This document shows, piece after piece, positions 4,706-19,635 of a stretch of 20,000 nucleotides of DNA. The number at the start of each line of letters is the position of its first letter. Within the stretch, counting starts at the first letter, position 1. Source of the DNA: an uncultured virus (IMG/VR IMGVR_UViG_3300005405_000309). Taxonomy: Duplodnaviria; Heunggongvirae; Uroviricota; Caudoviricetes. The position numbers were made by a program, and so were the translations under genes. Under the pieces are notes generated by a model that saw only the letters and a list, made by a program, of their open reading frames with translations, was not told where the DNA came from and did not search any database. The stretch is taken from the IMG/VR virus record IMGVR_UViG_3300005405_000309, one strand, 5' to 3'.

Positions 4706-4751
4706 AAGTGAGCCCCCCTTTCAAAATTAATGGCACAATGTTCAATTATTA

Positions 4752-6395
4752 TTAAATTCTTGGGGGTGGAACGATCGTAACAGGATTCGTTGCGATACCA
4801 TTAAGCCGTAGTTCAAAATGTAGATGCGGTCCTGTGCTACGCCCCTCCGATCCGACAGGAGCGATGGATTGCCCAACAGACACATGTTGTCCTACACGTA
4901 CATAAGATTGAGACATGTGTCCATAAAACGATGTTTGTCCATTGCCATGGTCAATCGTAATGCTTGTCCCATAAATCGAGTCGCTAGAGACTATACTCGT
5001 TATCGTCCCGTCCTTTGTGGCAACGATATCTGCACCTAATGGAGCGGCTATGTCGATACCCGTATGGTAAGAATTCGTTTGCCCAGTAACAGGATGTGTC
5101 CTAGTCCCAAATGGATCTGTTATTTGGAAATATCCTGGCACAGGCCATGTGAAACCCTGTGGATTTGTTTCCATCCATCCGGAATATTTACCATAAAAAT
5201 ACATACGCCCTACCACTAAATTCACATATTCCGAGCTATGGTTATATCCGAAGACAGCCTGTTGTATCCCACTTATTGATCCCATTGCAGCCCCTTGTTG
5301 GGACAGCATATTGGCTGCACCCATGATCGATTTTTTAACATCCCAAATATCTGTACTCGAGTAGCCTAATTCTCCTCCATAAGCCAACCAGCTGGATGGT
5401 AAAAATTGCATAGGTCCTTGCGCCCCGGCAGAGGACGTATTGCCCATAGGATAAGTAGCAAATGAGGATTCTGTATAACATATCGCCATTAGAAGCGCTT
5501 CAAATTGATCAACATCGGTAGCCCCATGAAATCGTTGCGCCGCCTGTTCAAAATAGGGAATATATTCAGAAGGTGGTGGCGATCCTACGGAATACGTCAT
5601 GCCACCTCCATTCATAAGTACATCCGAAAGATCGGAAGGTGTATTTAAATCAGTCGTGCCGCCATTATTATAATTGCCTGCTAACAGCAACACTATCTTA
5701 CGGTCATATTCCGTTGTAATCTGATATCGAGCTAATAAGCTAAATAGCCGTATATAATTAGCCGGTGTCGGTGGAATGATCTGCTCGAGAACTGGTTGAG
5801 TGATCGTTGTCCTTTCGGTGGATGTCGTAACCATTTTGTATTTATGAGTATAGGTACCACTATAGGTATTAGCTGTATCTATCAGTTTAACTTGTGTAAC
5901 ATTGATGGAGCATCCTTCATCTCCGCAAACTATGACCGTTTTGGGTAATTCGATAAATGTGAAGTTAGGCATAAGATCATCGATATAATCCTCGGGGGCA
6001 GGGGCCTCGCAATTATTTGATACCTTATCGACAGCTGCAAAGTATCCCCAAGGTACAAGATAGGTACTTGTCATAGGCACTTGATTTTGTGTACTTCTAT
6101 CAACTGTGGCTGCCGAGGCATCCTGGTACTTTTGTAATAACGCTTGATTCACAGCTATATCATTTTCCGTCTCAGGCTTATTTGTAAAATTGAAGAGTCC
6201 ACTCTGCCCATCCATCGGTGTGAAAAAAGCGCCAAGAACTAAGGATATGCCCATAAAAAACATCATCATAGCCAAGGATATTGCCAACATCGGAATACCA
6301 AGTTTCGTAATGATTGCTTTCGCCGCGGTAGATAAAGCCTTTCTGACCAACATCCTCGCCGCTTGGTTAGCGACTCGATTTGTCTTATCACCCAT
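4752..6395 (-). CDS. Conjugation cell-wall hydrolase (VirB1-like): N-terminal TM + SLT lytic transglycosylase + M23 peptidase
   Basis: SLT motifs CYTESSF, SSAGAQGPMQF, GYNH. M23 motifs HTGID, YGHM, STGPHLHFE. Lies in the T4SS cluster. Confidence 0.88.
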   Translation of the reverse strand: MGDKTNRVANQAARMLVRKALSTAAKAIITKLGIPMLAISLAMMMFFMGISLVLGAFFTPMDGQSGLFNFTNKPETENDIAVNQALLQKYQDASAATVDRSTQNQVPMTSTYLVPWGYFAAVDKVSNNCEAPAPEDYIDDLMPNFTFIELPKTVIVCGDEGCSINVTQVKLIDTANTYSGTYTHKYKMVTTSTERTTITQPVLEQIIPPTPANYIRLFSLLARYQITTEYDRKIVLLLAGNYNNGGTTDLNTPSDLSDVLMNGGGMTYSVGSPPPSEYIPYFEQAAQRFHGATDVDQFEALLMAICYTESSFATYPMGNTSSAGAQGPMQFLPSSWLAYGGELGYSSTDIWDVKKSIMGAANMLSQQGAAMGSISGIQQAVFGYNHSSEYVNLVVGRMYFYGKYSGWMETNPQGFTWPVPGYFQITDPFGTRTHPVTGQTNSYHTGIDIAAPLGADIVATKDGTITSIVSSDSIYGTSITIDHGNGQTSFYGHMSQSYVRVGQHVSVGQSIAPVGSEGRSTGPHLHFELRLNGIATNPVTIVPPPRI

Positions 6396-6413
6396 AAATT
6401 GCCCCTTACCCCT

Positions 6414-8630
6414 CTATCGTCTACGAGCCAAATCGTTCAAAATTGCAGATCCTCGTGGTCCTCTGGGGTCATTTCTTCCCACATTCGTATATACATCATT
6501 TGGTTTATACGTTCTCGTATTATCTCCGTTATAAAGAGTCTGTTCCACCATAGGGATGGAATCACTTCCGGCTGGATGGCCCTGTTGTCCAAAGTCCATT
6601 AATTTGCGTTCACCATAGTTAGGTTGTCCATCAGCACCAGATCCCTCAAATTTCCGCTGATAGATTGCCGATCCAGCACCCGTTGAGACTTTCTCCATCA
6701 TGTCACCAGATTCCCATGGGCTGTTCGTATTACTGCTGATTTCACCCATGACAGACGATGCTGCTTGGGCCGATGCATTGTTGGCTCTATTCTCCATTGC
6801 TTGTCCAACAAATGGGGTTCCTCTCAATCCTTGAGATACTAGGCTTGCTGTATTCACCTTACCAAGGGCAATCTTTGTATCGTTCGAAAGCCCCTCAGCA
6901 AGCGGGCTACTTCCACCAAGTGCTTCATTGAAGATATTACTCCGTTCTGAATTACCCGCACTGCGCATCGCAATAGGCGCAACTGCGGCCGCACCACCGA
7001 ACGAACTGCCCATGCCACCCCCTACTTTATTGCCTGCCATCGCGCCCATCATCATCGTCATATTTCCACCACCGGTAGCCGCTCCAAAGACAGCCCCTCC
7101 GATGGACCCATAAACCTGTCCCAACGCATTCCCTGCTCGTCGCATAGTAGAAACACGACTAGCCATTTGTCCCATGTATCCGCCACCCGCGATTTGCCCT
7201 AACGAAGAACTTGACTGATTTTCAAGTGCCCCAATCCTATTACCACCGCCACCGCCCATCATGGCTCCGGCCGTTGCTGCTTCACCTACATCTGCTCCTC
7301 CGCCAAAAAGAGCCGCTCCCAAGTTTCCAAAGCTTCTCATCATTCCCATTGTGGCACCCAATCCAACACCCATCATAAGGTTTTCCCCGAGACCCTTTCC
7401 TGTTCCCGCTAGCCCCAAAATGCCTCGCATCATGTTGCTTACTGGGATCATCATAATGAGAAACATAAGTTGTGGAATCACTCCAACTTGAGTATGATCT
7501 GCAATTCGCGAATAAATTAAAAGGAAAAACGCATGGAACAATGGCATAAAAATGTTCCCTATTAATTCTTTGCAATAGTAAACAAAGGCCGTTCGAGCTT
7601 TTTCATTAAAATACAAAGCACAAAAAATTGGTGTAGAACTGATAAGGACAATTAAGACAAAGTATCGTTGTAAATAAATAAAATTGAGTGCTATCTCAAT
7701 TCCAGCAAGAGCTAAGACATAGAATGGTGCGACTATCATCTTGGTAGCAAAATCTCCTGTACTGACGATCGGAGATTTACTAATATTAGCAGAGCCTAAA
7801 AAATCTATATGTTTACTCGGTGCCAACGCACTTAAACCAATATTCAGCACAGTAAACAAGGTAGAGATCAAAATCATACCGCCCCCTACCAGGATCGTTC
7901 CAATAATCCAATCTTCAAGCATAGTATATGCACTGGCACGACGTTGAGAATTTGCATTAGAGCGGGCCATTTTTATACAGGTAAGATAGAGTATGGCTAG
8001 GGCAATTGTCCACGCCACATTTTTCAAGCCCGTGTTGAAAGGCATAATGATGTAATTGAAGTCCGCAGTAGAAAATACCCTCCAAACCATTGTGGGCGTA
8101 GGAACAGGATGTTCATCTGTCCCCTTCTCTGAAAAACCACTAAATCCATAAATTAATTCATAAAGATCTTTAAGCCCAAAAAAATTCAAAACAGCACCAG
8201 GGATCGAACTGATAAACGTCCCAAATAACCGTTCTACTATATTCGGCTCTTGTTTGGGGACTATTCCTTGGATGGCCTGCCTATTTATTTCTTGTTGCTC
8301 TTGAACATTTGTTAATACATTATTATAGTTTTCCTCCATAGTTGGACCAGACGGATTATATAAATCGTGCATCCACTGACTTGTGTCAATGCCTTGCCAG
8401 ATCATCCCATATAAATCTAGCGGAACTTCAGGGATTTGTATTGGTGCTATCGGTGCATCTGGATCCCCACCGTAAAGCTGACCCATTAAACCTGAAGTAT
8501 CTATTCCCGCGTTTATTTCCTCTGCAACAACACTAGACACTGGTAATAGGATCATTCCCCATAAGAGAACGATTACAATACTAAACTTTAATTTTCTATA
8601 ATGCTTATTGTGGCTAAAAGACTCATACAT
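6414..8630 (-). CDS. VirB6/TrbL-like polytopic T4SS membrane protein with Gly-rich cytoplasmic tail
   Basis: Signal/TM N-terminus, several TM helices (e.g. YLQRYFVLIVLISSTPIF, ELIGNIFMPLFHAFFLLI), G/A/M-rich C-terminus, position between VirB4 and the hydrolase. Confidence 0.75.
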   Translation of the reverse strand: MYESFSHNKHYRKLKFSIVIVLLWGMILLPVSSVVAEEINAGIDTSGLMGQLYGGDPDAPIAPIQIPEVPLDLYGMIWQGIDTSQWMHDLYNPSGPTMEENYNNVLTNVQEQQEINRQAIQGIVPKQEPNIVERLFGTFISSIPGAVLNFFGLKDLYELIYGFSGFSEKGTDEHPVPTPTMVWRVFSTADFNYIIMPFNTGLKNVAWTIALAILYLTCIKMARSNANSQRRASAYTMLEDWIIGTILVGGGMILISTLFTVLNIGLSALAPSKHIDFLGSANISKSPIVSTGDFATKMIVAPFYVLALAGIEIALNFIYLQRYFVLIVLISSTPIFCALYFNEKARTAFVYYCKELIGNIFMPLFHAFFLLIYSRIADHTQVGVIPQLMFLIMMIPVSNMMRGILGLAGTGKGLGENLMMGVGLGATMGMMRSFGNLGAALFGGGADVGEAATAGAMMGGGGGNRIGALENQSSSSLGQIAGGGYMGQMASRVSTMRRAGNALGQVYGSIGGAVFGAATGGGNMTMMMGAMAGNKVGGGMGSSFGGAAAVAPIAMRSAGNSERSNIFNEALGGSSPLAEGLSNDTKIALGKVNTASLVSQGLRGTPFVGQAMENRANNASAQAASSVMGEISSNTNSPWESGDMMEKVSTGAGSAIYQRKFEGSGADGQPNYGERKLMDFGQQGHPAGSDSIPMVEQTLYNGDNTRTYKPNDVYTNVGRNDPRGPRGSAILNDLARRR

Positions 8631-8642
8631 GAGACATCCCCC

Positions 8643-9455
8643 TTAATTCTCTTGAGCAAAAAAGTCATTCAGCGCAGCCTGGGTTGAGCGGTCTTCTACT
8701 TTAAAAAGACGCAATGCTTGTATCGATACTGGATGAATCTTAAAAGTCGGTAAACCGGTCGATTTATTAACACTGTTTTGTATGCTAATTACAAAGTAGC
8801 TTACGCTTCCTTCTTTACTCGTCGTTTTAAATAATGCAGAAGTTACAGTAAGTGTATAGGGGGTACCAGTTTTCGAGGTTTCTGAGCGGGTAGTCGTCGG
8901 CCATAATAAACCAATACGTTCGATTTTACTAAAAGAATCAAGTTCCCTTATAATGTTAACGATAGATTGATGTAGTCCACCTAAATTCGTGTAGTTACCG
9001 CCTCCAACCCAATTCGATTGAACCTCGTTATTAGCTGAGAGATCAACGCCACTACGTATTGGATTATTTAATACGGTATGCCCTGCACTTGTAATAAGAT
9101 CTAAGGAGCTGGCAACAGCCACACCTTCCGGTGAATTTGTATAATATGTCATAAACTCCCTTGAATGATCAAGCACTTTCCCACTTGGATCAATCGCAAT
9201 CTCCTTAGGTGTATGATCAATATTAGCAACCGTTGGGGCAACATCAACCCACTCAGCCTCCAAAGTCTCAGCAGTACCAGCCTGGTTCTCCTCACTGACT
9301 GTCTGACTAGGCGAAGTCTCTGGAGGCAATTCAGATTTGTTTTTTCCTGTAAGAAGTACAACTGCGCTTCCAATTCCCACTAAAATGATCACGCCCAATA
9401 ACGAGACCATAATATTTTTCCAGCGTAGTCTTTTAATTATATTTAGCAAAGTCAC
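8643..9455 (-). CDS. Bitopic membrane protein of the conjugation cluster (possible VirB8-like role)
   Basis: Basic N-terminus, one TM (IMVSLLGVIILVGIGSAVVLL), E/S/T-rich linker and globular domain. Overlaps the end of virB4. Function inferred from position only. Confidence 0.55.
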   Translation of the reverse strand: MTLLNIIKRLRWKNIMVSLLGVIILVGIGSAVVLLTGKNKSELPPETSPSQTVSEENQAGTAETLEAEWVDVAPTVANIDHTPKEIAIDPSGKVLDHSREFMTYYTNSPEGVAVASSLDLITSAGHTVLNNPIRSGVDLSANNEVQSNWVGGGNYTNLGGLHQSIVNIIRELDSFSKIERIGLLWPTTTRSETSKTGTPYTLTVTSALFKTTSKEGSVSYFVISIQNSVNKSTGLPTFKIHPVSIQALRLFKVEDRSTQAALNDFFAQEN

Positions 9456-11451
9456 CCACCTCTTCTACCGCTTCTTCATCTAAATGTTGTTTGCTTGAAT
9501 AGACCCAATTTTCCTCCAACTGAGTCGGTTCTACTTTAAAACCAAAGTACTTGTCTTTGACTTTCATAATACCTTCACCACGCGCCGATTCTCTGATCTG
9601 CTTTAAGACACTTTCCGAAAACGAGAACGCTGCCTGTAACGCCTCACACTCTGCATCAGAGTTCGCCAGGAAAAACATGGTATCACTGTTCTGAAAGATG
9701 GACATACCTTGCTCATGACGAGTAAAAATCTGGAAGTCTTGAGATAGGATAAATATACCCTTATTGAAATGTCGTGAAGTTCGATAAAGTAATTCTAAAA
9801 AGCTCATAGTGATTGGTGCCGCTTTTGACCTAGTGAAGAGCCATGCCTCATCTATCACCACAAGTCCGGGTTCGTCAGGATCCTTCTTTACAAAGTTTTC
9901 TTCGATCCAAGCTAATGCTAAAAACATCCCCGGCACTCTGGCAGCTGCATCTAATCGCTTTGTTACAAAATTATAGTGCGTGCGACTATCTAGTTCTACA
10001 TTCGTCCATTGGTCGAAAAAACCCATCGATGGATTCGTATGGAGAAAGCGCTTCATGATCGTCGTTAAACGTCCCATTTTTTCTCCCATTTGAGAAATCT
10101 CAGCATGGAAATCCCTGAGTCTTGGCATTTTCTTTTTGACTTTCCCGTACGTGGCATTCCCTATATTGTCAACCGTTCTCATCTCTTCATAAAGCGATTC
10201 TGGATCTTCTGTGAAATTAAAGGGATCTCCCATATATACGTTTTTCCACGCCTCATCACAAAGAGATTCTTCCTCAGCTGTAAGTTCTCCACACATAATC
10301 GACGTAAGTATGGTCATCGAAGAAATCTTATTCCCGATATTAACGACCCATTCACCGGTCTCGCGTACATACTCTGGTGCTATATCGCAGGGATTCAAGG
10401 AACTCTCAGCCCCCGGACCCAAGTCAACATTTACCCCACCAAGGGCATCAACCATAGTAACAAACTCACCCATTGGATCCACTGTCGCCATACGCACCCC
10501 GTTATACCGTTTCCCAACCCCTGCAAACTGAATACGACCGCCCAACGTTTTAATAAGTGTACTTTTTCCTTTACCCGAGCCTGCAAAAATCGCACCATTG
10601 TGGTTATCTAATGACGGATCAAAAGGAGTATAATTTAGAAATTTACCCGTATGTACATTAATCGCAAAGGGAACACCAAAGCGATGTTTGAGATCCGCTA
10701 CTTGAAAGAGGAAGATCGTTGAAAGTGCGAACGAATCAAAGCCGTGCGAAACGTCTCCACATAAATTAATTCCCATTGGTGTAGTGCTTAAGAACCCCTC
10801 ATCCATTCGCCCCTCAGCCATCTTAGTGTAAATACTCCGATTGGACATCTTTTGTTCCAACAGAGCGCAATCTGTCTCTAACTCTTTTAGATCCGGATTG
10901 TAGAGATTTGCTAACGTCGTAACGTTGTAAAAGCGGCTCCGATTAGTGGCCACCAAATTTCGGATGCCCCAGGCATCCGTTAGTGCGGTGTTAATTTCCT
11001 GAACTAGAGAGAGATCCCCTGATTTCCGACTAAAATCTGCTTCTGTTTCCAATCGAGTTGCAATCTCTGTAAGTTCGTCGAGTGAAGCTCTGTCCTGATA
11101 GGGTTTTACATGGATTGCGAAATCAATATCCCCAGGATGTTCTAAGAAAGCATTAAGCCACCCTATTTCTACACCTTTAGGGTAACCCGTGACGAGCATC
11201 GTTTTGACATAATTATTACCTATCCTAAAGTACTCGGAGTTGGAGCGATCAACACTGTTGGCAATATAATCAACAAGCCTTAATACTCCATGAGTAATTT
11301 TGTTTTTTGAAGTATCATTTACTTTTTTGGGTTTAAAGAACTTCGAAAAAATGTTGGGTTTCTTCGTCTTTATCAGTGCCCCCGTCTCTTCTTGGGTATT
11401 GATAACATCCGCTATATTGGGAGGAGGCGGAACTCTTCTCTTTTCCTTCAC
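9433..11451 (-). CDS. virB4: VirB4/TrsE-like conjugation ATPase
   Basis: Walker A AGSGKGKST, motif VDPMGEF, LNPCDI, Walker B VVIDEAW, SRHFNKGIFILSQ. GTGA coupling to the upstream gene. Confidence 0.92.
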   Translation of the reverse strand: MKEKRRVPPPPNIADVINTQEETGALIKTKKPNIFSKFFKPKKVNDTSKNKITHGVLRLVDYIANSVDRSNSEYFRIGNNYVKTMLVTGYPKGVEIGWLNAFLEHPGDIDFAIHVKPYQDRASLDELTEIATRLETEADFSRKSGDLSLVQEINTALTDAWGIRNLVATNRSRFYNVTTLANLYNPDLKELETDCALLEQKMSNRSIYTKMAEGRMDEGFLSTTPMGINLCGDVSHGFDSFALSTIFLFQVADLKHRFGVPFAINVHTGKFLNYTPFDPSLDNHNGAIFAGSGKGKSTLIKTLGGRIQFAGVGKRYNGVRMATVDPMGEFVTMVDALGGVNVDLGPGAESSLNPCDIAPEYVRETGEWVVNIGNKISSMTILTSIMCGELTAEEESLCDEAWKNVYMGDPFNFTEDPESLYEEMRTVDNIGNATYGKVKKKMPRLRDFHAEISQMGEKMGRLTTIMKRFLHTNPSMGFFDQWTNVELDSRTHYNFVTKRLDAAARVPGMFLALAWIEENFVKKDPDEPGLVVIDEAWLFTRSKAAPITMSFLELLYRTSRHFNKGIFILSQDFQIFTRHEQGMSIFQNSDTMFFLANSDAECEALQAAFSFSESVLKQIRESARGEGIMKVKDKYFGFKVEPTQLEENWVYSSKQHLDEEAVEEVGDFAKYN

Positions 11452-12257
11452 GCACCTGCCAACTCCTCTGCATAATTTAATGATTGTGGGTCAATGTTTT
11501 CCGATCCCTTTTCAGTCGTATATAACCCAAACAAACCAGCCTTTGTAGCTTGTTTAATACTGACAGAATTACTGTCTCGATTGAACGCAAAGTGCATAAG
11601 ATCAGTCAATTCATCTGTATTAAGTCGATATGCCTTTAGCTCAGCACGTCCGAAGGCTTCAATCATTGAGAGAGCACGAGTATTTAATTCCGTTAATGCT
11701 TGTTGGTAAATAATTTCTTCGCTATAACCTTTCACATTGTCGATCTCATCGTAATTAATCACGAAATAATATCCAGGTTCGATAGGTGCCCTACGGATTG
11801 TTTCAATCGTAACGTATCTTGCCAAATCCGCACCATAATATGCCATACGCGAAAGACCGTCTTTTTCATGGCGCTCCGCCATCCTTTGGATGCGCTCAGC
11901 CATTAGAGAAGGGTCATTTCTTAAACTGGCAACATAAAACATAAATCCATAACGCACCCCAAAAAGAGCTCGCCTAAATCGTTCTTTAATACTTTTCTTT
12001 TCATTAAAGGAATACATTGGCCAATTAAGCGGATCAACCCAAAGCACAGCGCGGAAACGTTGCGAATCCACCTTGATAACATTATCTAAAATGTCTTCAA
12101 AGATGGTAAAGTCTTGACCGGTTTCTGCTTTTAGTACTTTATCACGCGGACTTTGTGACCTATTCTCTTTAGGCCCCCCTTGTCCTAATGACCGTTTGTA
12201 AAAGAAAAAACCCATGACAACAGCAAAAAGGAGAAATAATAAATCACCCATACTCAC
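11448..12257 (-). CDS. Conjugation accessory protein (N-terminal TM; TrsD/TraD-like) immediately upstream of VirB4
   Basis: N-terminal TM. Motifs AVLWVDPLN...EKKSI..RF and AYRLNTDEL..LMHFAFN resemble proteins encoded just before VirB4 in Gram-positive T4SS. Confidence 0.6.
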   Translation of the reverse strand: MSMGDLLFLLFAVVMGFFFYKRSLGQGGPKENRSQSPRDKVLKAETGQDFTIFEDILDNVIKVDSQRFRAVLWVDPLNWPMYSFNEKKSIKERFRRALFGVRYGFMFYVASLRNDPSLMAERIQRMAERHEKDGLSRMAYYGADLARYVTIETIRRAPIEPGYYFVINYDEIDNVKGYSEEIIYQQALTELNTRALSMIEAFGRAELKAYRLNTDELTDLMHFAFNRDSNSVSIKQATKAGLFGLYTTEKGSENIDPQSLNYAEELAGA

Positions 12258-12261
12258 TCAC

Positions 12262-12660
12262 CTACTTTATAATCCTATACGGCAATATTGGCTTTTTGCC
12301 GCTATTGACAAATTTGAACCATAGGTACCCATCAATCGTCATATTCACATCATAAGGATCAAGATTCGCTTTTGGTTTTGGATTATCGAAAAAAGTAACC
12401 TTATAAGCCGGAACGAAGGCAAAGATTGCACCGATGATAACCCATATTAAACCAATCACAGCGCAAATTCCCACCCCTACTAAATGAGCATTAGGAATTT
12501 TTACGAGCTTCAAGATAGAAGCGACGGGAATTTGAAAGGAAAGCCAGACCAAGATGACGACAATGAGTAAAATAATTCCCTGTCGCTTCGTGGCCTTCCC
12601 GCCGATGATTTTTTCATCATGTTTAAGCTCTAATTGAAGAGGATGCATCCAATCGTCCAT
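12262..12660 (-). CDS. prgI: PrgI-family (VirB3-like) protein
   Basis: EKIIGGKATKRQ motif followed by two TM helices and an aromatic/basic tail. RBS AAGGAAGGA. Confidence 0.75.
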   Translation of the reverse strand: MDDWMHPLQLELKHDEKIIGGKATKRQGIILLIVVILVWLSFQIPVASILKLVKIPNAHLVGVGICAVIGLIWVIIGAIFAFVPAYKVTFFDNPKPKANLDPYDVNMTIDGYLWFKFVNSGKKPILPYRIIK

Positions 12661-12750
12661 ATGTGTTCCTTCCTTGTATTAAAGACTTATAAAATAGTCG
12701 CTGTTCACAATGAAGCTTATTGGTCCTAAAACTTTAAATATTTTTTATAA

Positions 12751-13155
12751 TTAGGGAGTACCAGAGATCGTGCCTCCGACACCTTTAAGAACGCCCATGA
12801 GATAAGGAGCCATAAAAAAGAGAAGTACTGAAATACCAACCCAGAGAAGCCCTTCCACCGCGAGCGCACGTTTGGTAGCATTTTTAGCATGAGCACTTAC
12901 GGAAAAAGTGTGATAGTACCCAAAACCCAATAGGATCGTTCCACCAATATAACGGAAGAAGTTGACGAAAATGGCAACGCCCCCACCCAAGCTTGTCAAA
13001 GATGCGGTTGTGGGATCTGCAAGGACCGCTGTACTATCTGACCCTACCGCTAATACGAGACCATTTTGCATCAGCACAAATAATATAGTTATGGCAAATA
13101 TCATGGAGTTTCGTTTTGTCCCGTTAGGTAAAGCATTGAAGATTTGGTTAATCAA
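12751..13155 (-). CDS. VirB2/TrbC-like pilin
   Basis: TTG start with RBS AAAGGA. Signal-like N-terminus (..LVLA), two hydrophobic helices separated by a KR loop. First structural gene of the T4SS cluster. Confidence 0.7.
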   Translation of the reverse strand: MINQIFNALPNGTKRNSMIFAITILFVLMQNGLVLAVGSDSTAVLADPTTASLTSLGGGVAIFVNFFRYIGGTILLGFGYYHTFSVSAHAKNATKRALAVEGLLWVGISVLLFFMAPYLMGVLKGVGGTISGTP

Positions 13156-13237
13156 GATAGACCATTCCTTTCTTATAAGCCGAATAAAACTTCCTTCGTT
13201 TAAGAATTATATGCTTTCTAATTCCCCCTTTCTGGAA

Positions 13238-13288
13238 GCACAAAAGCCGATAAACCTTCTCCATCAGAATGAAAAGGTTTATCGGCTT
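13238..13288 (-). terminator. Intrinsic terminator between the leader gene and the pilin gene
   Basis: Perfect 15-bp stem AAGCCGATAAACCTT/AAGGTTTATCGGCTT (13244-13258 / 13274-13288), followed on the minus strand by TTGTGCTT. Confidence 0.72.
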
Positions 13289-13341
13289 CCGTCTACCGCG
13301 GTATCGCCGCAAATTTTTAACTTTTAATTAGTTTACAATCT

Positions 13342-13812
13342 TTATATGTTAACGTCAATATCAAGCCAAGCTTGTGATAAAGCTGGTTTACACTCATAAC
13401 AATTCTCACCATTATGTGCACACAGTGAACAATACATTTTATCCATACCGGTCGTTCGACTATATTCCAACCCGAGCAATTCCCTCCCGACGAATTTAAT
13501 GGTTATCTTTCCCCAAAAGCCAATGTGATCAAGGGCATTTTGAATAATTACAATTAACTCTTGCAATTGGATTTTCATGCCTTTTTTTTCTTCTTCATTA
13601 GAATTTACGAACGTATTACAAGCATTCGTTGAAATAATCCCATCTTGTATGGCTAATCGAAAAACTGTAATTATTACGGATTCTGACTGAGGCAGTTCTG
13701 TTAATATTGAATACGCCAAAAGCCTAGCATCTGGTTTAGCAATGGGTTTTCTTTGATTATGGTTTTGTTTTGAAGCGGGTTTTGAGTCTCTCACTCTTTC
13801 TTGTTGTCGCAT
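13342..13812 (-). CDS. Leader protein of the transfer operon; YezD/DUF2292-like C-terminal motif plus CxxC-x6-CxxC; candidate antiterminator/regulator
   Basis: Start moved to ATG 13812 (RBS GAGGGGT). Contains QNALDHIGFWGKITIKFVGRELLGLEYSRT and CSLCAHNGENCYEC. Confidence 0.55.
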   Translation of the reverse strand: MRQQERVRDSKPASKQNHNQRKPIAKPDARLLAYSILTELPQSESVIITVFRLAIQDGIISTNACNTFVNSNEEEKKGMKIQLQELIVIIQNALDHIGFWGKITIKFVGRELLGLEYSRTTGMDKMYCSLCAHNGENCYECKPALSQAWLDIDVNI

Positions 13813-14117
13813 CTGTACACCCCTCATTGTCATTTTATATACCAGAATCTAATATCTACATGGTTGCCGGTGAATAACGGGAAGAAAATAATCGAAAAAT
13901 AATATTTAAAGGATATTCAATGTATATATAAATGTTATAGCTTATATCTTCATGTTTAACAGCGGAAATTAAATTAACTTGTAAAATTATATTCATATTG
14001 TATTTGTTTGCATGAAAAAATTCAAGACTAAGCCAAAAAAATCAAATTCTTTAAATAAACTCTATAAAGTTACATATTTTTTATCTATTCGACAATGATT
14101 GACAACCAACATTATAA

Positions 14118-14167
14118 TTGATAATTAAAATTTAAATTACATATTATATTTAAATTTTAATTATCAA
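14118..14167. repeat. Perfect 20-bp inverted repeat with 10-nt spacer
   Basis: TTGATAATTAAAATTTAAAT-TACATATTAT-ATTTAAATTTTAATTATCAA. Confidence 0.85.
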
Positions 14168-14324
14168 GGAAAATAATAATGTTTTATTTAATTAAATGTT
14201 TATTTTGTCTCATAATGTCTTAATTTTGTTCTATTAAACATAAATTAAACTTCTACTATAAGAAAAAAAGCAATACTGCGAAAATGTATAATGCTATATA
14301 TAAATTGTTTTGTTAATTTGTAAT

Positions 14325-14352
14325 ATTCATTAGGACTAATGGCCTAATGAAT
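14325..14352. repeat. 10-bp inverted repeat with 8-nt spacer
   Basis: ATTCATTAGG-ACTAATGG-CCTAATGAAT. Confidence 0.6.
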
Positions 14353-14509
14353 TGTGCTTCTTTAGCTTGAATTGTCCCATTTAATCACACATTTCAATAG
14401 GACCAACGTCTTATAAGCCTATCTCTTATTAAGAATTCCATTCACGTGTTTTGTCTTTGCTATAAAACTTAATCTTTATCAAATAATCTATGACCGCTAA
14501 TTTTGAACG

Positions 14510-14560
14510 GAGGAGGGGAGAGGGCCTATTAAATTAGATGCCCTAACCCCCCTTCTTTTC
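14510..14560. terminator. GC-rich hairpin after the DUF4258 gene; the U-rich tail is on the + strand
   Basis: GGGGAGAGGGCCTA...TAGATGCCCTAACCCCC followed by TTCTTTTC. Confidence 0.45.
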
Positions 14561-14565
14561 AAGAT

Positions 14566-14976
14566 TTAACTCTGCCCTTTCCGTTTAGTTGGGGTTATCC
14601 ATCGCGATGGTTCCGGTTCATAAGCTGTAACTACATCCAGCCAGTAGCTACTCGTTTCGTTGTCAATAGAAAATGGCCAAACAGAAAAAACAATATGAAT
14701 CGGTCGTCTCTTGAACGTATAACCATTTACCAATAATCGGATCGGGTTGTGCTTTTTTAGTATTTCAATGATCTCACATGATTGAAGTGCCTCATCGATT
14801 TCTCGAATATCTATATTGCGTTTTTTTAACCTGTTCCAAAAATAAGGATTAGACAGCCTTATAGAGGGTGTATAAACATTTTTTCGAATCCATTGGGCTG
14901 AGGGAGTTTTTATCTCACGACTGCTCTGTAGCACGTTTTGTCTTTTCCTCGATTGTTCACCCCTTGATGTCTTCAA
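14566..14976 (-). CDS. DUF4258-family protein (RelE/BrnT-like toxin fold)
   Basis: RLKKRNI...IDEAL...EIIE...LLVNG...RPIHIV...VVTAYEPEPSRW...KRK matches the DUF4258 pattern. TTGA overlap with the upstream stop. Confidence 0.72.
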   Translation of the reverse strand: MKTSRGEQSRKRQNVLQSSREIKTPSAQWIRKNVYTPSIRLSNPYFWNRLKKRNIDIREIDEALQSCEIIEILKKHNPIRLLVNGYTFKRRPIHIVFSVWPFSIDNETSSYWLDVVTAYEPEPSRWITPTKRKGQS

Positions 14977-15566
14977 ATCGCCTCACACTCCTCTATGCAT
15001 TTTTTAGGTCTAATCCGCTTCTTGCCTAAAATATCTAAATTATTAACAATTAGTTTGCTGCCATTAATTTTTCCAACAACATAAATAATGTCGCCCAATT
15101 TTACTGGATAGACAGCATATTTATCAGCAAATAGAATGAACTCCGCCGTCCCTGAGGGATCATTAAGATATCCCGATAGCATTGCTCCCGAACGAGTTTC
15201 GGTGACATTTGCGTTTACAACCACTCCAGCAACTCGACAAAATGAGTCCGAAGCGTATACAACATTTTTTAGAGCATGACTTACGTGACCACTTAATTGT
15301 GTCGCATATTTATCAAGCACATGAGTCCGACGACTCTCTCTGCAATCCTCGTAAGGTAGACTTATGTTTGTTTCAACCAATTCCTTCGGAAACTCCGGAT
15401 TATCAAATGTTAACGCCAATTTTTCAGTTCCATCACTTATTTTGTATTCCAACGCCGGATTTCGAACGGGCGGTTTTGGCATTCGTGGAGAAATTGTCAT
15501 TAATGAGATACCTGGTAATAGGAGAAAACTAATAAAAGCTAGCCCTCCCGCAATAATTAATGCCAT
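14973..15566 (-). CDS. Membrane-anchored OB-fold nucleic-acid-binding protein (DnaE C-terminal OB-like)
   Basis: Hydrophobic N-terminus MALIIAGGLAFISFLLLPGI. HVLDKY...RVAGVV...TRSGAM...LNDPSGTAEFILFADKY...IIYVVGKI...LIVNNL resembles the DnaE OB domain. Alternative GTG start at 15587. Confidence 0.65.
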   Translation of the reverse strand: MALIIAGGLAFISFLLLPGISLMTISPRMPKPPVRNPALEYKISDGTEKLALTFDNPEFPKELVETNISLPYEDCRESRRTHVLDKYATQLSGHVSHALKNVVYASDSFCRVAGVVVNANVTETRSGAMLSGYLNDPSGTAEFILFADKYAVYPVKLGDIIYVVGKINGSKLIVNNLDILGKKRIRPKKCIEECEAI

Positions 15567-15576
15567 AGTCTTTTCC

Positions 15577-18396
15577 CTACCCTTCACTCACAAGACCAAA
15601 ATCCCAGCCCATTTGCAGTGTTCCCGGTCCGCTCTTTTTCTTGCCACCGCGTTTGGACATTTCGATAACTTTATAACTCGAACGTTCTACCATAACTTCA
15701 TGGTTTTCAGACTGAACTAGTTCAACGACGGAAATTGGCTCTGTTTCGGCAAAGATGTTCCCGTCTGCCAAACAAGCTATATCACTCACTGGTTCTACGG
15801 TAAGTTCCTCAGAACTAGTTTCGCTAATGGCTAATGGCTTGTAGCCCATTCGTTTCCATATTTCGTCGGCACTATCAACGTTTTCGAGACCCTCGACCAA
15901 TGCCTTGGCTAATTCCATTTCCATACTTCCACCAACGCCAGAACCCATCTTGCGCAGCGCATCGTCACTGAAGTGTCCTTCAATCGCGAGAGAAGCCTCA
16001 ATTTTGGCTCCGATTAATCGAATCGCACTCTCCTGTAAACTTCTCTCATAAACCATGAAGAAAACAAAAACTTCTTTCGTCTGACCCAGCCTCCAACTGC
16101 GTTTGGCGGCTTGCCTCAAAGTCATCACATTATAACCAGTCTCATAATAGATGATCGACGGAAAACTTAATAAATCGAGTCCAGTCTTAACTTTTTCAGG
16201 GTTTACGATTACAGCATCGTATCCCTTCCAAACTTTATCGGCGATCCAAGATGCCCTTTTTTTGCTTGACACCCCATCGCCAAGATAGGCAGCTTTTATC
16301 CCATTCCTTTCAAAGACACCAAGTAACCGTTTTGGCACTGTCGGCTTTTTAGTAAAATTCACATAAACTAAGCACTTTCTGCCTAACCGCTTTTGCGTCC
16401 ATACTATTTCCATGAGTCGTTCTTCTTTTGGATATTCAATACTATCCGAAAGATTCTTTGGTTCATAGACAACCACCGAACGATCTCTTGGTTCAGTAAT
16501 GGGCGCTACATCAAAGGGATGGTCTGCGTACGATAAAAGTCCATTGATATAGGCTCCTAAAAATCGGCTTCTCCTATTTGAGTATTGTGCTGATTTAATA
16601 AGATCAACCATCGTCATCTCCATCTCACGATACGCTGCCCTTTGTTCATTTAACATTGGAATTAGTTCTACATATTCGGTGTATTCAGGGAGATTGTCCG
16701 TAACATCTGTTAACTCTAGAAAGGCGGCTATTTCAAGGAGATAGTCTCCAAATACTTGGGGAGAAATCCCCGGTAGAGTCTTTTCGGATACTAACTTACG
16801 ACCGCTCCTAGACGATCTCTTTCGATCATCTTGCTCCTTATAGGTTCTTTCAACGACCCCGTATGTTTTTGAAAACGCTAACGAACTTCCAAATTCAAAA
16901 CCACGTTTTTTGAATTCCCTAGGATTCGCGAAAAACAAGGCCCTATACACATCTGATGGAACTCCACCGAAAAGTGTACCGGTTAAACCCAAGGTTCGTT
17001 TAGCCATTCCAACCAACGTGCCAAAAGCAGCACTTTGGGATGAATCAATGCCTTTCATTTCATGGATTTCATCAGTTATTAATAAGTCGATAAGCCCTTT
17101 CCACTTTCGTTTAATGACATCGATCGGTGCTACTTTACGATGTGTCGTATTATCTGCACTCCAAAGTGATGCACCACACTCTTTACCGTCAACAATAGCT
17201 GTACATTTCTGATTATCAGACGTTGGTTTGATAAAGGCTTCTAGGTCAAAAACATAATCATTTTTGCCTATGAGAATATTTCCACAGTCAGGACATGTCC
17301 ACGCTCTCTTTCGCTCATTCCAGCGGACAGCCGGATACCGAAGGTATCCCAGTTTTAGCATATCCTTTGACATTATAATGAAACGCGGTTTGTCACAAGA
17401 CTCCTTCAACATGGGAGTTAGTTTAAAAATATCGATATAACTTTCTGCGATGATCGCCTCGGCATCGATTGTCTTCTCTATTTCTTCTTTCCATTTATCT
17501 ACGAGATGCCCCGGCGACATTACGAAGATGTTTTTAACCTTCATTAAATGCGCAATTCCAATGGCCATGAGAGTCTTGCCAGTTCCCATTTCAGCACTAC
17601 AAAACGCTAATCGCTTGGTCTCTAAGGCGAGTGTTAGTCCTTGTATTGTATCCGCCTGCGCTTGATAGGGTTTCCTCTTTAACTCAAATAAACGAGGATC
17701 AAGAGGATCTCCCGGATTATGCAGGGGAACAAATTGTTGATTCAGATTTTTTGCCAAGGCCCCTCCAAACCCTAGTAGATAATCAGAAACTTTCGTGCAG
17801 GAATCAAGAGACCGATTGCCAGGGTTTCCTTCTGGAATTTCGATAGAACCTGTTCTTAATCCGCGTTTGACAATCTCCTCAATATCATCCTCACTGCCCA
17901 TAATATGGAATGCTCTAAGGGGTATCTGCTCTACGCTGTATACTAGGCAATATTCAGCAGTTCCGCACTTAATAAGTTCCTCCATAATATAAGGCGTCCA
18001 CTCTTTCATTAGGGGGTTTGGGTGTTTTGCTTTCAACCACGCTGAAACGGCTTTGACAATATCACCATCCCACGCCAGAACAGCTCCACCATTCACTTTT
18101 TCCTGTCCATAGCATTTTGCATGGGCAAAGATTCCGTGTGTAAGGTCGTTCATTTTCCCGCTGTAAGACCGATAAGAACCAACCGTGCTTACTTGAATTT
18201 TATTTCCCTCTCCACTCTTATCTTCAATGAGGTAGTATGCCTCCTCGCGATTGGTATGTGCCTTCGCAATAACGGCCTTTACCGTGGAATCATATCCTCC
18301 TACACTCGCATAAACGACTTCCTTCATAGGAGTAAGAACCATTAGATCACAAAACACCCTAAAGCGGGTGAGCTCTCCGTAAACCTCTAATAGCAC
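15577..18396 (-). CDS. SNF2-like/DEAD-box SF2 helicase with a Zn-ribbon insertion (partner of the DUF6094 MTase)
   Basis: PYQAQ, Walker A AEMGTGKT, DEIH, LTGT, TGLDL, QAAKRSWRLGQ; CPDC...C...C insertion. GTG start with RBS AGGAGG. Confidence 0.88.
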   Translation of the reverse strand: MLLEVYGELTRFRVFCDLMVLTPMKEVVYASVGGYDSTVKAVIAKAHTNREEAYYLIEDKSGEGNKIQVSTVGSYRSYSGKMNDLTHGIFAHAKCYGQEKVNGGAVLAWDGDIVKAVSAWLKAKHPNPLMKEWTPYIMEELIKCGTAEYCLVYSVEQIPLRAFHIMGSEDDIEEIVKRGLRTGSIEIPEGNPGNRSLDSCTKVSDYLLGFGGALAKNLNQQFVPLHNPGDPLDPRLFELKRKPYQAQADTIQGLTLALETKRLAFCSAEMGTGKTLMAIGIAHLMKVKNIFVMSPGHLVDKWKEEIEKTIDAEAIIAESYIDIFKLTPMLKESCDKPRFIIMSKDMLKLGYLRYPAVRWNERKRAWTCPDCGNILIGKNDYVFDLEAFIKPTSDNQKCTAIVDGKECGASLWSADNTTHRKVAPIDVIKRKWKGLIDLLITDEIHEMKGIDSSQSAAFGTLVGMAKRTLGLTGTLFGGVPSDVYRALFFANPREFKKRGFEFGSSLAFSKTYGVVERTYKEQDDRKRSSRSGRKLVSEKTLPGISPQVFGDYLLEIAAFLELTDVTDNLPEYTEYVELIPMLNEQRAAYREMEMTMVDLIKSAQYSNRRSRFLGAYINGLLSYADHPFDVAPITEPRDRSVVVYEPKNLSDSIEYPKEERLMEIVWTQKRLGRKCLVYVNFTKKPTVPKRLLGVFERNGIKAAYLGDGVSSKKRASWIADKVWKGYDAVIVNPEKVKTGLDLLSFPSIIYYETGYNVMTLRQAAKRSWRLGQTKEVFVFFMVYERSLQESAIRLIGAKIEASLAIEGHFSDDALRKMGSGVGGSMEMELAKALVEGLENVDSADEIWKRMGYKPLAISETSSEELTVEPVSDIACLADGNIFAETEPISVVELVQSENHEVMVERSSYKVIEMSKRGGKKKSGPGTLQMGWDFGLVSEG

Positions 18397-18420
18397 GATA
18401 TCATCCTCCTATTTCTCAAT

Positions 18421-18458
18421 AAAAAAAGGAGAAACCTTTCCACAAAGGCTCTCTCCTT
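18421..18458 (-). terminator. Intrinsic terminator directly upstream of the helicase RBS
   Basis: Minus strand AAGGAGAGAGCCTTT-GTGG-AAAGGTTTCTCCTT followed by TTTTT. Confidence 0.72.
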
Positions 18459-18549
18459 AATCACGACTCCTATTATCTGTACTTAAATATATCACCCATC
18501 CGCCAAAGAGGCCGATTCCCCCTAGTATCAACGAATACACAAACCTCAT
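18457..18549 (-). CDS. 30-aa single-TM peptide MRFVYSLILGGIGLFGGWVIYLSTDNRSRD
   Basis: Translated by hand. RBS AAAAGGGGG about 5 nt before the ATG; stop TAA runs into the terminator stem. Below the ORF-track size cutoff. Confidence 0.62.
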   Translation of the reverse strand: MRFVYSLILGGIGLFGGWVIYLSTDNRSRD

Positions 18550-18603
18550 ATTAGCCCCCTTTTCAAAACTATTTACATAATAATTTCATCATTTCACAGT
18601 GAT

Positions 18604-19635
18604 TTACATCAATACTCGTAAATCTCCAATATGATCCCTCAGGACAATATTGACTGTATGAGACTCCACGACTTTTGTAATGTCCACTATACTACCATCT
18701 TTCTCAACTGCTTCATCATAGCTTTCTTGGACATTTTTAACGACTCGACCTCGTACCAGGTGACGATCATAGCCGCTTCCAAGAACACCATTCGCATAGC
18801 CGCTCGCTAAAAGTAATGCATCATGACCAGCATGGGTTCTTGTTACCGGTCTCATTACTCGATCATTGTCATGAAGTTCTGATGCTTGTTTGAACTTCAT
18901 CGATAAGCGCGATGCTGCCATATCTTTTAATACCTCGTCATGGTCTAATATTCCACCTCGGAATAAAGCTATCGATTGCGTTGGTAAGATTGTATATTCC
19001 GGTATCATAGCCTCTGTAATCACTGGCCAGCTCTCTCCTGCTGCCGCACATTCCAGGATTCGATTCGCAGCGTCTTCATCTGGACAAGGCATCTCTTTTA
19101 ATATTCCGAAAAGAATAATTTGTCCAAATGATGCATACTCAGTATCCGGAAATCTAAAAACCTGAATTTTCCGGAATCGATAGGAGAGTACACGCGCAAC
19201 ATCTTGAGTCAGCTGGTGCTGTTGGATAATATAGATCAACAAACCGCCTTTAGCTAAATAGTGATACGTGTCCTTTAGAAAACGCAATTCCTTACGCTCT
19301 GATTTCTCCTCATCCGATCCCGCTTGATAATCAAAGGGAGGGTTTAAATAAAGGATCGAAAACCCACTATTTGTAATCCGCGCCGTTTCATATCCGCCTC
19401 TGGCTACTTTATGCAGCCTTGATTTCGCTTCTGGAACAAAATTTTCATTAATTTCAACACCATAGCCGAGACCGTTGGTATCTTGAACGAGATCATGCAG
19501 GGCTTGTCCTTTGCCACAACACGGATCAAGCGCATTAAACGAAGTGTTTCCAAATTCGAGATACGTCCTCGCTAATTGCACAATGGAGTCAGGTGTCGGA
19601 TAAAATCCTAATTTTTTTTGACCTTCAATCCTCAT
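18604..19635 (-). CDS. DUF6094-type SAM-dependent N6-adenine DNA methyltransferase
   Basis: GFYPTP, motif I LDPCCGKG, catalytic LYLNPPF, and C-terminal RP...GH.ALLLASGYANG typical of ICE/plasmid MTases paired with helicases. RBS AAGGAG. Confidence 0.85.
   Translation of the reverse strand: MRIEGQKKLGFYPTPDSIVQLARTYLEFGNTSFNALDPCCGKGQALHDLVQDTNGLGYGVEINENFVPEAKSRLHKVARGGYETARITNSGFSILYLNPPFDYQAGSDEEKSERKELRFLKDTYHYLAKGGLLIYIIQQHQLTQDVARVLSYRFRKIQVFRFPDTEYASFGQIILFGILKEMPCPDEDAANRILECAAAGESWPVITEAMIPEYTILPTQSIALFRGGILDHDEVLKDMAASRLSMKFKQASELHDNDRVMRPVTRTHAGHDALLLASGYANGVLGSGYDRHLVRGRVVKNVQESYDEAVEKDGSIVDITKVVESHTVNIVLRDHIGDLRVLM

Follow-up and report, generated by a model that had tools for sequence, protein, structure and literature searches.

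A Cys4 protein gene and its downstream cassette

The DNA analyzed here is a stretch of 20,000 nucleotides from an uncultured virus record (IMG/VR IMGVR_UViG_3300005405_000309, Caudoviricetes), and this whole stretch is called the window. Among sequencing runs, one DNA data set is listed as holding it, a groundwater metagenome that may be its source, and no RNA run is listed. Its long open reading frames (ORFs) are all on the minus strand. In that direction they run from an upstream operon across an AT-rich stretch to a gene for a 156-amino-acid (aa) protein with four C-terminal cysteines (the Cys4 protein), a 186-nucleotide (nt) spacer, and a set of type IV secretion system (T4SS) genes. Our subject is the Cys4 gene together with a cassette of ~130 bp, defined as a predicted promoter, a ~20-nt motif of the form GCGATACCGC-N3/4-AGACGGAAGC, a long-stem intrinsic terminator, and a ribosome-binding site (RBS). 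An original prediction made from the letters alone had described the 156-aa gene with its CxxC-x6-CxxC pattern, the 186-nt spacer, a GC-rich segment, and a 15-bp hairpin, and all of these were recovered at the positions it gave. The features of this region are as follows.

13342..13812, minus strand: gene of the 156-aa orphan protein (ORF, translation, and Shine-Dalgarno [SD] sequence)
13330..13358, minus strand: promoter-like TTGACG-17-TAAACT (consensus scan, 9/12; predicted)
13285..13307, minus strand: conserved motif GCGATACCGC-GGT-AGACGGAAGC (invariant columns in an alignment of 5 copies)
13236..13292, minus strand: long-stem intrinsic terminator (folding and covariation)
13221..13233, minus strand: RBS-like AGAAAGGGGGAAT with no start codon after it (alignment)
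13206..13211, minus strand: TATAAT hexamer between the terminator and the pilin-like gene (coordinates; absent from the promoter scan's list)
12751..13155, minus strand: pilin-like membrane protein of 134 aa with a TTG start, the first T4SS gene (Pfam and NCBIfam)

The ORF of the Cys4 protein is listed as 13342..13833 on the minus strand, which gives 163 aa from the first ATG. The 156-aa form starts at the ATG at 13812, 7 nt behind the SD sequence GAGGGG (13825-13820), and it is this form that the protein databases hold (P0001). The protein includes the string ALDHIGFWGKITIKFVGRELLGLE and ends with the arrangement C128-x2-C131-x6-C138-x2-C141, a pattern by which the tail may be called a putative zinc finger.

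An exhaustive phmmer search over 1.84 billion representative proteins returned six proteins including the query. The five other clusters are P0002 (45% identity to the query), P0003-P0005 (35-38%), and P0006, an 88-aa N-terminal piece. A word-indexed profile search found no further relatives, all names are “hypothetical protein,” and no fused or longer forms occur among 7,998 candidates. Likewise, protein-pattern scans of viral contigs found no relative, and a metagenome scan yielded a single 17-residue match (L003), which was set aside. The four cysteines are invariant in 5/5 full-length family members, as are GF.G and a few Gly, Leu, and Trp residues. The isoelectric point is 5.0-5.7 in the three short members of the Desulfosporosinus type and 7.6-7.7 in the window protein and P0002, which carry a basic tail.

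No Pfam or NCBIfam family was found for the protein, and Pfam at E≤10 is empty for all five full-length members. The YezD/DUF2292-like label that the original prediction had attached to it did not survive this search: DUF2292 (PF10055, 37 positions) matches no member, and an alignment with hhalign to two DUF2292 proteins reached a probability of 0.4% over 12 columns, which fall in the first repeat (FRLAIQDGIIST) and not in the string that had been quoted. When PF10055 was searched against the two genomes with homologues described below (G001 and G002), the matches were on other contigs and not to the homologues. The likeness of a helix plus hairpin to DUF2292 is real to the eye and lacks statistical support.

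An AlphaFold2 model built from the shallow alignment has a mean pLDDT (per-residue model confidence) of 68.6, with values of 82-93 in 10-residue blocks of the core. This core consists of two helix plus beta-hairpin repeats (residues 29-69 and 83-119), and confidence is low for both the N-terminal tail, which is basic, and the Cys-rich tail. Foldseek found no PDB match at E≤1e-3 (top match EsaG, E 0.04, TM 0.28), a wide fold search with VIA gave a best Z of 4.3, and the best E value of a sequence profile search of the PDB was 0.89. The ESM Atlas gave no feature hit and structural TM values of ≤0.44 (query-normalised) and ≤0.62 (normalised by hit row). There is thus no convincing match to a solved fold in these searches.

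The spacer (13156-13341) is 186 nt long with 37% GC and includes a GC-rich segment at 13310-13284 (27 nt, 70% GC), followed by a stem-loop that is itself the terminator. The -35 hexamer of the promoter-like site lies within the last codons of the Cys4 gene, the -10 hexamer ends 22 nt ahead of the motif, and the 3′ end of the motif forms the base of the terminator stem. The hairpin has perfect 15-nt arms (13288-13274 and 13258-13244), after which comes TTTTGTGCTT at 13245-13236. The stem reaches 22 pairs, with a folding energy of -32.1 kcal/mol, once G-U pairing between the upstream GACGGAA and the U-tract is included. As in an intrinsic terminator, the stable hairpin is followed by UUUUGUGCUU on the coding strand. 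On the plus strand the arm is followed by CCGTCTACC and no T-tract, and therefore the terminator works one way only. A 196-nt stretch around it folds with z = -5.3 (0/200 shuffles fold as well), and in a crude minus-strand scan for a hairpin plus T-tract it was the strongest candidate in the window (-33.3 kcal/mol). The best Rfam hits, Plastid-psbA-2 and CopA-like, scored 26.8 bits against gathering thresholds of 55.8 and 60 (E 0.026-0.05).

The RBS-like AGAAAGGGGGAAT is homologous to the real RBS of the 829-aa and 837-aa protein genes that follow cassettes in Desulfosporosinus. For the remainder of the spacer, the original prediction would have been refuted by a strong independent promoter between 13156 and 13240, and no such promoter was found. 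The perfect TATAAT at 13211-13206 lacks a TG extension, and its -35 hexamer is weak (CAGAAA, by eye, at a spacing of 17 nt), making it a possible weak independent promoter. A weak second hairpin (13186-13240, minus strand; GCUUCC ... GGAAGU with large internal loops, then UUUUAUU) lies between the main terminator and the pilin-like gene, and it occurs in the window only, being absent from the other copies.

Two further readings of the spacer were rejected. A leader peptide (a 54-aa frame at 13148-13312) would start at the motif without an SD sequence, and the matching frame is closed by a TAG (by eye) at one of the related loci (L001). An origin of transfer, formed by the hairpin and a nick site on the plus strand, fits poorly to the MOBP nick consensus, and one related element has four copies of the cassette in both orientations.

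Conservation of the gene and the cassette

Three gene-cassette junctions were compared: the window (20 kb), a 38-kb region of G001, and a 16.9-kb contig of G002. G001 and G002 are metagenome-assembled genomes (MAGs) of Desulfosporosinus, and their homologues are 35-37% identical to the window protein. In G002 (locus L002), the homologue is part of a mobilization and transfer cluster, where it comes after genes for NikA/MobC, a MobA/VirD2 relaxase, a coupling protein, and an AAA ATPase, then three small ORFs and a 296-aa ORF, and it is followed by the gene of an 837-aa protein with an N-terminal hydrophobic segment. In G001 (locus L001), the homologue follows a 309-aa ORF near a serine recombinase gene. 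Neither neighbor of the Cys4 gene in the window, upstream or downstream, is conserved in these genomes. A tblastn comparison (E≤0.01, ORFs of ≥60 aa) found the Cys4 protein to be the sole ORF common to all three.

The noncoding sequence after the gene is shared nonetheless. At 3/3 loci the gene is followed by the motif, a long hairpin, and a T-tract, within ~40 nt in both Desulfosporosinus MAGs. The common order past the stop codon is GCGATACCGC, N3/4, AGACGGA(A/G)GC, the long hairpin, the T-tract, and AGAAAGGGG(G)AAT. The hairpin that abuts the motif differs in sequence between loci, and the differences are compensated. In the Desulfosporosinus loci, this final string serves as the RBS of the following gene. 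In the window, no start codon comes after it and the pilin-like gene starts 65 nt farther on; the window therefore looks recombinant, with the cassette joined to a T4SS operon.

These comparisons support a conserved two-part module, at least as judged from sequence, in which the protein gene and its downstream cis element stand together at an operon head. The claim of a protein plus RNA module at the head of the transfer operon stands to this extent, and the conserved RNA element expected downstream of homologues is there at every locus with DNA. What does not stand is a large RNA of the conAn2 type, since the conserved stretch is ~85 nt.

Evidence for the structure was obtained from an alignment of 10 copies fitted to the model, a procedure that favors the structure. 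In this alignment 91% of cells are paired, compared to 79% after shuffling and 33-62% in slid controls. Changes on both sides occur in 16/24 pairs, and 0/500 shuffles reach any observed measure. The structural support comes from the long stem, a 17-pair helix in which 11 pairs have changed on both sides and 92% of cells are paired. A three-pair mini-helix within the motif (GCG/CGC) shows no covariation gain and is broken in 3/10 copies. There is no conserved alternative pairing that would involve RNA only, which points to a trans factor. As judged from these alignments, selection on the hairpin acts on its structure and on the sense strand, because its G-U pairs would be C-A mismatches on the opposite strand, and the motif is kept as sequence.

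Furthermore, a promoter of its own seems to be present in the cassette, ahead of the terminator. In 6/8 copies the distance from the end of a -10-like hexamer to the motif is 21-23 nt, the window and a third genome (G017) have TTGACG-17-TAAACT with identical hexamers and spacing, and two G001 copies have TGnTATAAT. A promoter score of ≥9 on our own 13-point scale is reached by 4/8 copies and by 12% of shuffled sequences, so that this evidence is suggestive and not proof.

The exact motif is rare. It was found in 1/401 sampled genomes of the phylum (G001), with three copies on one contig, and a reversed control pattern gave one match, in one other genome. A covariance model (R1) was then built from five copies and used to search 103 genomes of the order. 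It scores its five source copies at 70-93 bits and also finds a diverged G001 copy (28 bits) that faces a recombinase gene. G001 therefore has four copies on one contig, each before a gene or gene group: a serine recombinase; the 309-aa gene and the Cys4 gene; an 829-aa gene; and T4SS genes. The copy in the last group (L006) precedes homologues of the 270-aa and 738-aa T4SS genes of the window (45% and 61% identity). In 3/6 strong copies (L001_dn, L002_dn, and L006), the RBS of the next gene begins no more than ~15 nt past the T-tract. This leaves no space for a promoter, and therefore those downstream genes need read-through.

Across the order, 8/103 genomes have a match to the model at E≤1e-4. 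The motif is recognizable only in G001, G002, and G017, is degenerate in G049 and G048, and is absent from the other three, which have the hairpin alone. A homologue of the protein is present in 2/103 genomes. The G017 cassette (G017:C1:247310-247394; L046 / L053) scores 57 bits and is an orphan. It is followed by a strong SD sequence and a 5-codon ORF, and small XRE-type helix-turn-helix (HTH) genes lie ~450 nt downstream. The cassette's predicted promoter, the presence of the cassette at several operon heads, and this one genome without the protein are features beyond those in the original prediction.

Other observations on the copies concern G001. Positions 4138-5049 of L001 are a divergent control region with two outward cassettes (4566-4487, minus strand, and 4881-4964, plus strand) and a long palindrome between them (~4680-4732). 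Just before the 309-aa gene is a promoter-like TTGTTG-17-TATAAT with TG (by eye), flanked by the inverted repeat AGCAATATG/CATATTGCT. Elsewhere in G001 (C32:21905-21990; L030), a bidirectional terminator with the stem AAAAGACGGAAGCCGATAGGCC... lies between convergent genes. It has the AGACGGAAGCCGATA stem in common with the cassette hairpin and lacks GCGATACCGC; therefore terminator modules seem to be copied within the element.

Searches outside these genomes gave no additional copies. Viral contigs yielded 15 matches to the motif pattern, none with a hairpin and T-tract after it, and they were rejected because tens are expected by chance (a rough estimate for 17 fixed bases). In a plasmid collection, blastn with positions 12700-14600 found no match, and the L006 cassette found short scattered matches only. 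Bacillus accounts for 58 of the 66 records that the window cassette matched at E≤10 (~84% identity over 38 nt). We treated these as chance because the pBc10987 match has neither the 3′ arm nor the T-tract.

Operon context in the window

The gene and cassette are positioned at the start of a conjugation operon. The T4SS set encodes, in order, the pilin-like protein, 132-aa and 269-aa proteins, a VirB4-like ATPase (AAA_10/DUF87 in Pfam), a 270-aa protein, a 738-aa polytopic protein, and a cell-wall hydrolase with SLT and M23 domains; a VirB6-like gene is counted among the T4SS genes after the cassette. A UvrD-type helicase gene is located farther downstream. The pilin-like protein matches PF18895 (T4SS_pilin) at E 2e-05, which is under the curated cut-off, and NF045849 (pilin-like conjugal transfer protein) at E 8e-05. 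Relatives of the window VirB4 in the Desulfosporosinus order are only 24-25% identical and occur in 3/103 genomes.

Upstream, an operon that ends at 14566 includes genes for a DUF6094 methyltransferase, a 939-aa SNF2-type helicase, an OB-fold protein, and a DUF4258 protein. As a whole, it (14566-19635) resembles the leading-region or anti-restriction-type set typical of a Firmicute conjugative element. Between it and the Cys4 gene lies the AT-rich control region that the original prediction had also pointed out, and its composition agrees: GC is 0.165-0.275 across 13800-14400, compared to ~0.40 in the flanking genes.

13834..14565: AT-rich noncoding region upstream of the Cys4 gene, ~730 bp
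14111-14137 / 14148-14174: inverted repeat I1, with 27-nt arms that are 89% complementary and 10 nt apart

The I1 repeat sits in the most AT-rich part of this region (GC ~0.17) and is a candidate operator or origin-type element.

Other hairpins were noted on the minus strand. A perfect 18-bp hairpin at ~1159-1204 (-24.9 kcal/mol) overlaps the stop codon of a 178-aa gene and is followed by TTATCTTA. Embedded in it is the top minus-strand promoter-like site of the window (TTGATA-17-TATAAT, 11/12, 1186-1158). Here one transcription unit appears to end and the next to begin. Two candidates with a hairpin and T-tract fall within coding sequence, at ~3130-3220 (-32.3 kcal/mol, in the UvrD-like helicase gene) and at ~4049-4115 (-23.3 kcal/mol, in a 233-aa gene). 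Should these two function, the transfer operon would have internal terminators.

A candidate read-through switch and its alternatives

In the reading we favor, the transfer operon is controlled by an element-specific read-through switch made up of the Cys4 protein and the cassette. We hold this reading tentatively, at somewhat less than an even chance. Without the protein, transcripts from the cassette promoter (start site near 13323) or from farther upstream would stop at the hairpin at 13292-13236. The protein might act in either of two ways. On the nascent RNA, it could sequester AGACGGAAGC and so deprive the stem of its lowest pairs, those beside the U-tract. Alternatively, it could bind DNA just past the promoter and be loaded onto RNA polymerase, which is how Q and AlpA act. 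With the protein present, transcription would extend into the pilin-like, VirB4, and VirB6-like genes, an effect in the direction of antitermination. The same cassette precedes several operons in related elements, and the protein would therefore control a small regulon. Sequence cannot tell recognition of RNA, as at a ribonucleic antiterminator (RAT), from recognition of promoter-proximal DNA in the manner of Q or AlpA.

A protein-dependent switch is favored because the RBS abuts the T-tract in three copies, there is no conserved RNA-only alternative fold, and the motif overlaps the base of the stem. The invariance of the motif while the stem drifts with compensation, the rarity of the exact motif, the cassette following the gene at 3/3 loci, the Cys4 protein being their sole common ORF, and the four G001 copies ahead of separate genes or gene groups are also in its favor. 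Several points weigh against this interpretation. The stem is very long, and blocking its base alone leaves ~11-13 pairs; for comparison, the mean terminator stem in Bacillus subtilis is 9 ± 2 bp, and the 15-bp stem of the pLS20 terminator TerR resists conAn antitermination, according to the data given in PMC10325885. The protein has no nucleic-acid-binding domain or fold that is recognizable with Pfam (E≤10), Foldseek (E≤1e-3), or VIA (best Z 4.3), and its core is acidic to neutral. G017 has the cassette but lacks a homologue of the protein, the best match (E 0.3) being interrupted by stop codons, and its 19-kb surroundings have no protein in common with the other loci. The TATAAT hexamer intervenes between the window terminator and the pilin-like gene, as does the strong promoter-like TTGTTG-17-TATAAT between the upstream L001 cassette and the 309-aa gene; therefore read-through is not needed everywhere. 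Independent gene-cassette junctions number just three. Processivity is not clearly needed either, to judge from a crude scan: positions 4750-13155 have no terminator candidate below -20 kcal/mol, and the candidates at 4049 (-23.3) and 3154 (-32.3) are inside ORFs.

Part of this evidence could be accommodated if the cassette were a small-RNA gene present in several copies per element, producing an RNA of ~85-95 nt with the motif as a single-stranded seed, and if the Cys4 protein were unrelated or a partner. The promoter-like hexamers ahead of the motif, a short transcript ending in a very stable hairpin whose U-tract pairs back to GACGGAA, the G017 cassette in an unrelated context without the protein, and the separate promoter-like site after the upstream L001 cassette would all suit such a gene. 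We nevertheless rate it improbable: where the next RBS abuts the T-tract, in 3/6 strong copies, the same transcript must sometimes continue, and the window offers no convincing target, the one 10-mer complement (6332) being 63 nt inside an ORF with ~0.3 expected (an estimate). The fixed distance of the motif from the -10-like hexamer is also what would be seen if the motif were a DNA operator past the promoter, the Cys4 protein a conventional repressor or activator, and the hairpin an insulating terminator. Cys4 zinc modules are common in DNA-binding proteins, and GCGATACCGC is near-palindromic. However, the position of the motif is just as constant relative to the stem, whose base it overlaps in every copy; the change in length between N3 and N4 is easier to reconcile with a flexible linker or loop in RNA than with a dimeric operator; and the protein has an acidic core with no HTH or other DNA-binding family. 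This arrangement is improbable too.

An ordinary terminator of a monocistronic gene, with the T4SS operon transcribed from a downstream promoter and the motif kept by module copying, would be another account. The hairpin and T-tract are complete as a terminator, the TATAAT at 13211-13206 comes after them, the L030 terminator in G001 indicates that modules spread within the element, and weaker relatives of the hairpin exist in five further genomes of the order. It leaves unexplained, however, why GCGATACCGC is invariant outside a stem that drifts, why a promoter-like site stands directly ahead of the terminator, and why genes have their RBS right after the T-tract, and we find it quite improbable. 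A leader attenuator whose reader is a host factor or a different protein of the element would explain both the G017 cassette without a homologue and the missing nucleic-acid-binding signature of the Cys4 protein. Yet the three loci have no other ORF in common, the cassette lies next to the gene in 3/3 of them, and the hosts appear to differ, given the low identity of the window VirB4 to its relatives in the Desulfosporosinus order. This too we judge decidedly unlikely.

The original prediction had cast the locus as an analogous or divergent form of the conAn switch of plasmid pLS20. ConAn1 was defined as a PSI-BLAST family, some members of which match the Pfam family pXO2-34 (PF17362), and the conAn2 RNA element of 260-600 bp lies directly downstream of the protein gene, as described in PMC8191782. 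Membership of the Cys4 protein and spacer in this family would agree with their place, since they too stand first in a conjugation operon of a Gram-positive element. The validated ConAn1 proteins are only 13-33% identical (PMC8191782), so that weak similarity could be missed, and conAn2 needs a short GC-rich region plus a stem-loop (PMC8191782), which the present layout resembles superficially. For ConAn1 we used one sequence, the 172-aa product of pLS20 gene 28 (NC_015148; L042:2564-3082), which is followed by a 383-bp spacer in keeping with the account in PMC8191782 and has no Pfam hit itself. The family profile aligned to it by hhalign with a probability of 0.08% over 5 columns, PF17362 is not matched at E≤10 by 5/5 members, and the cassette model has no match (hits at E≤10) in the pLS20 conAn2 spacer. 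Moreover, the conserved RNA here is ~85 nt and itself the terminator, and strong terminator candidates are lacking from 4750-13155. Kinship is therefore extremely unlikely, and by these comparisons the finding is not a conAn member, because the two defining features, ConAn1 homology and a large RNA, were both tested and neither was found.

The likeness to conAn consists of a small protein gene plus a noncoding cis element at the start of a conjugation operon, a superficially similar short GC-rich segment plus a stem-loop, and a presumed gating of the transfer genes. The difference is a short cis element that is itself a terminator with its own promoter-like site and is repeated at several operon heads. 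We also observed that the spacer between pLS20 genes 28 and 29 (L042 3225-3245) holds GTAGACGGCAAG, which resembles GGTAGACGGAAGC of the window. About 0.1 such 8-mer matches are expected by chance (an estimate), and the cassette model gives no score there; as far as the mutants described in PMC8191782 go, this stretch was not mutated.

The layout of the proposed read-through switch is closer to lambda Q/PR′/tR′ or to RAT-type switches than to conAn. Nearest by layout are the lambdoid Q/PR′/tR′ system and AlpA of Pseudomonas aeruginosa, as outlined in PMC9388147, PMC6606751, PMC7969949, and PMC9371919. In these, the gene of the regulator immediately precedes a promoter, a specific element is located at or just after that promoter, and a terminator tens of nucleotides on yields a short RNA unless the factor passes polymerase into a long operon. 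Here the corresponding elements are the predicted promoter (13358-13330), the motif (13307-13285), and the terminator (13292-13236). The differences are that the Cys4 protein has no Pfam homology to Q or AlpA, that no sigma-dependent pause element was identified, and that the host element is a Firmicutes conjugative element and not a phage. Lambda Q has a zinc finger. No Q or AlpA chains are among the fold matches listed, which does not exclude such a fold.

In RAT/CAT systems (BglG, SacY, LicT) and ANTAR systems, a short conserved site in the RNA extends into the 5′ base of a leader terminator, a dedicated protein stabilizes the nonterminating form, and one regulator can serve several leaders. 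The conserved short site described here overlaps the 5′ base of its terminator in the same way. It differs in having a protein with no CAT, PRD, or ANTAR domain, no covarying alternative hairpin, and a stem far longer than usual. The cATT zipper-type attenuator of the pLS20 leader, as presented in PMC13401043, likewise combines a weak upstream stem-loop, a long stem, and a terminator at the head of a conjugation operon, and in both cases sequence upstream of the stem pairs downstream (here, GACGGAA with the U-tract). In contrast to cATT, the long stem here is itself the terminator, there is no conserved third hairpin, and the extension does not compete with the terminator; cATT also lies upstream of conAn1, whereas the present cassette is downstream of its protein gene (PMC13401043). 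Finally, canT of Tn916, as described in PMC11658703, resembles our case in that a conjugative element uses terminators as insulators and encodes a device to pass them; the difference is that the conserved partner here is a protein.

By function, the module belongs with terminator-gating devices at the operon heads of mobile elements (conAn, cATT, canT, Q, and AlpA). It might even represent an undescribed class of operon-specific antiterminator, a proposal that we consider speculative and rather unlikely. In such a class, an acidic tandem helix/beta-hairpin plus Cys4 protein would be loaded at a ~20-nt promoter-proximal element and would drive polymerase through long-stem terminators at each operon head (T4SS, surface protein, recombinase, and its own gene), with a logic like that of Q but an evolutionary origin separate from Q, N, conAn, and canT. 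Both the protein family and the cis element are new, and we infer their function from three gene-cassette junctions. The family is very small and is known solely from environmental assemblies, which limits its reach.

The control of transfer genes decides when mobile elements spread, and the understood switches of Gram-positive elements are few: conAn, canT, the pLS20 attenuator, and the pheromone systems. If the reading as a read-through switch is true, the Cys4 protein and its cassette would be a third unrelated device composed of a protein plus a cis element, and terminator gating at operon heads would have been invented repeatedly. It would also provide a compact part, consisting of a 156-aa protein and a cassette of ~130 bp, and a function for an unannotated protein family.

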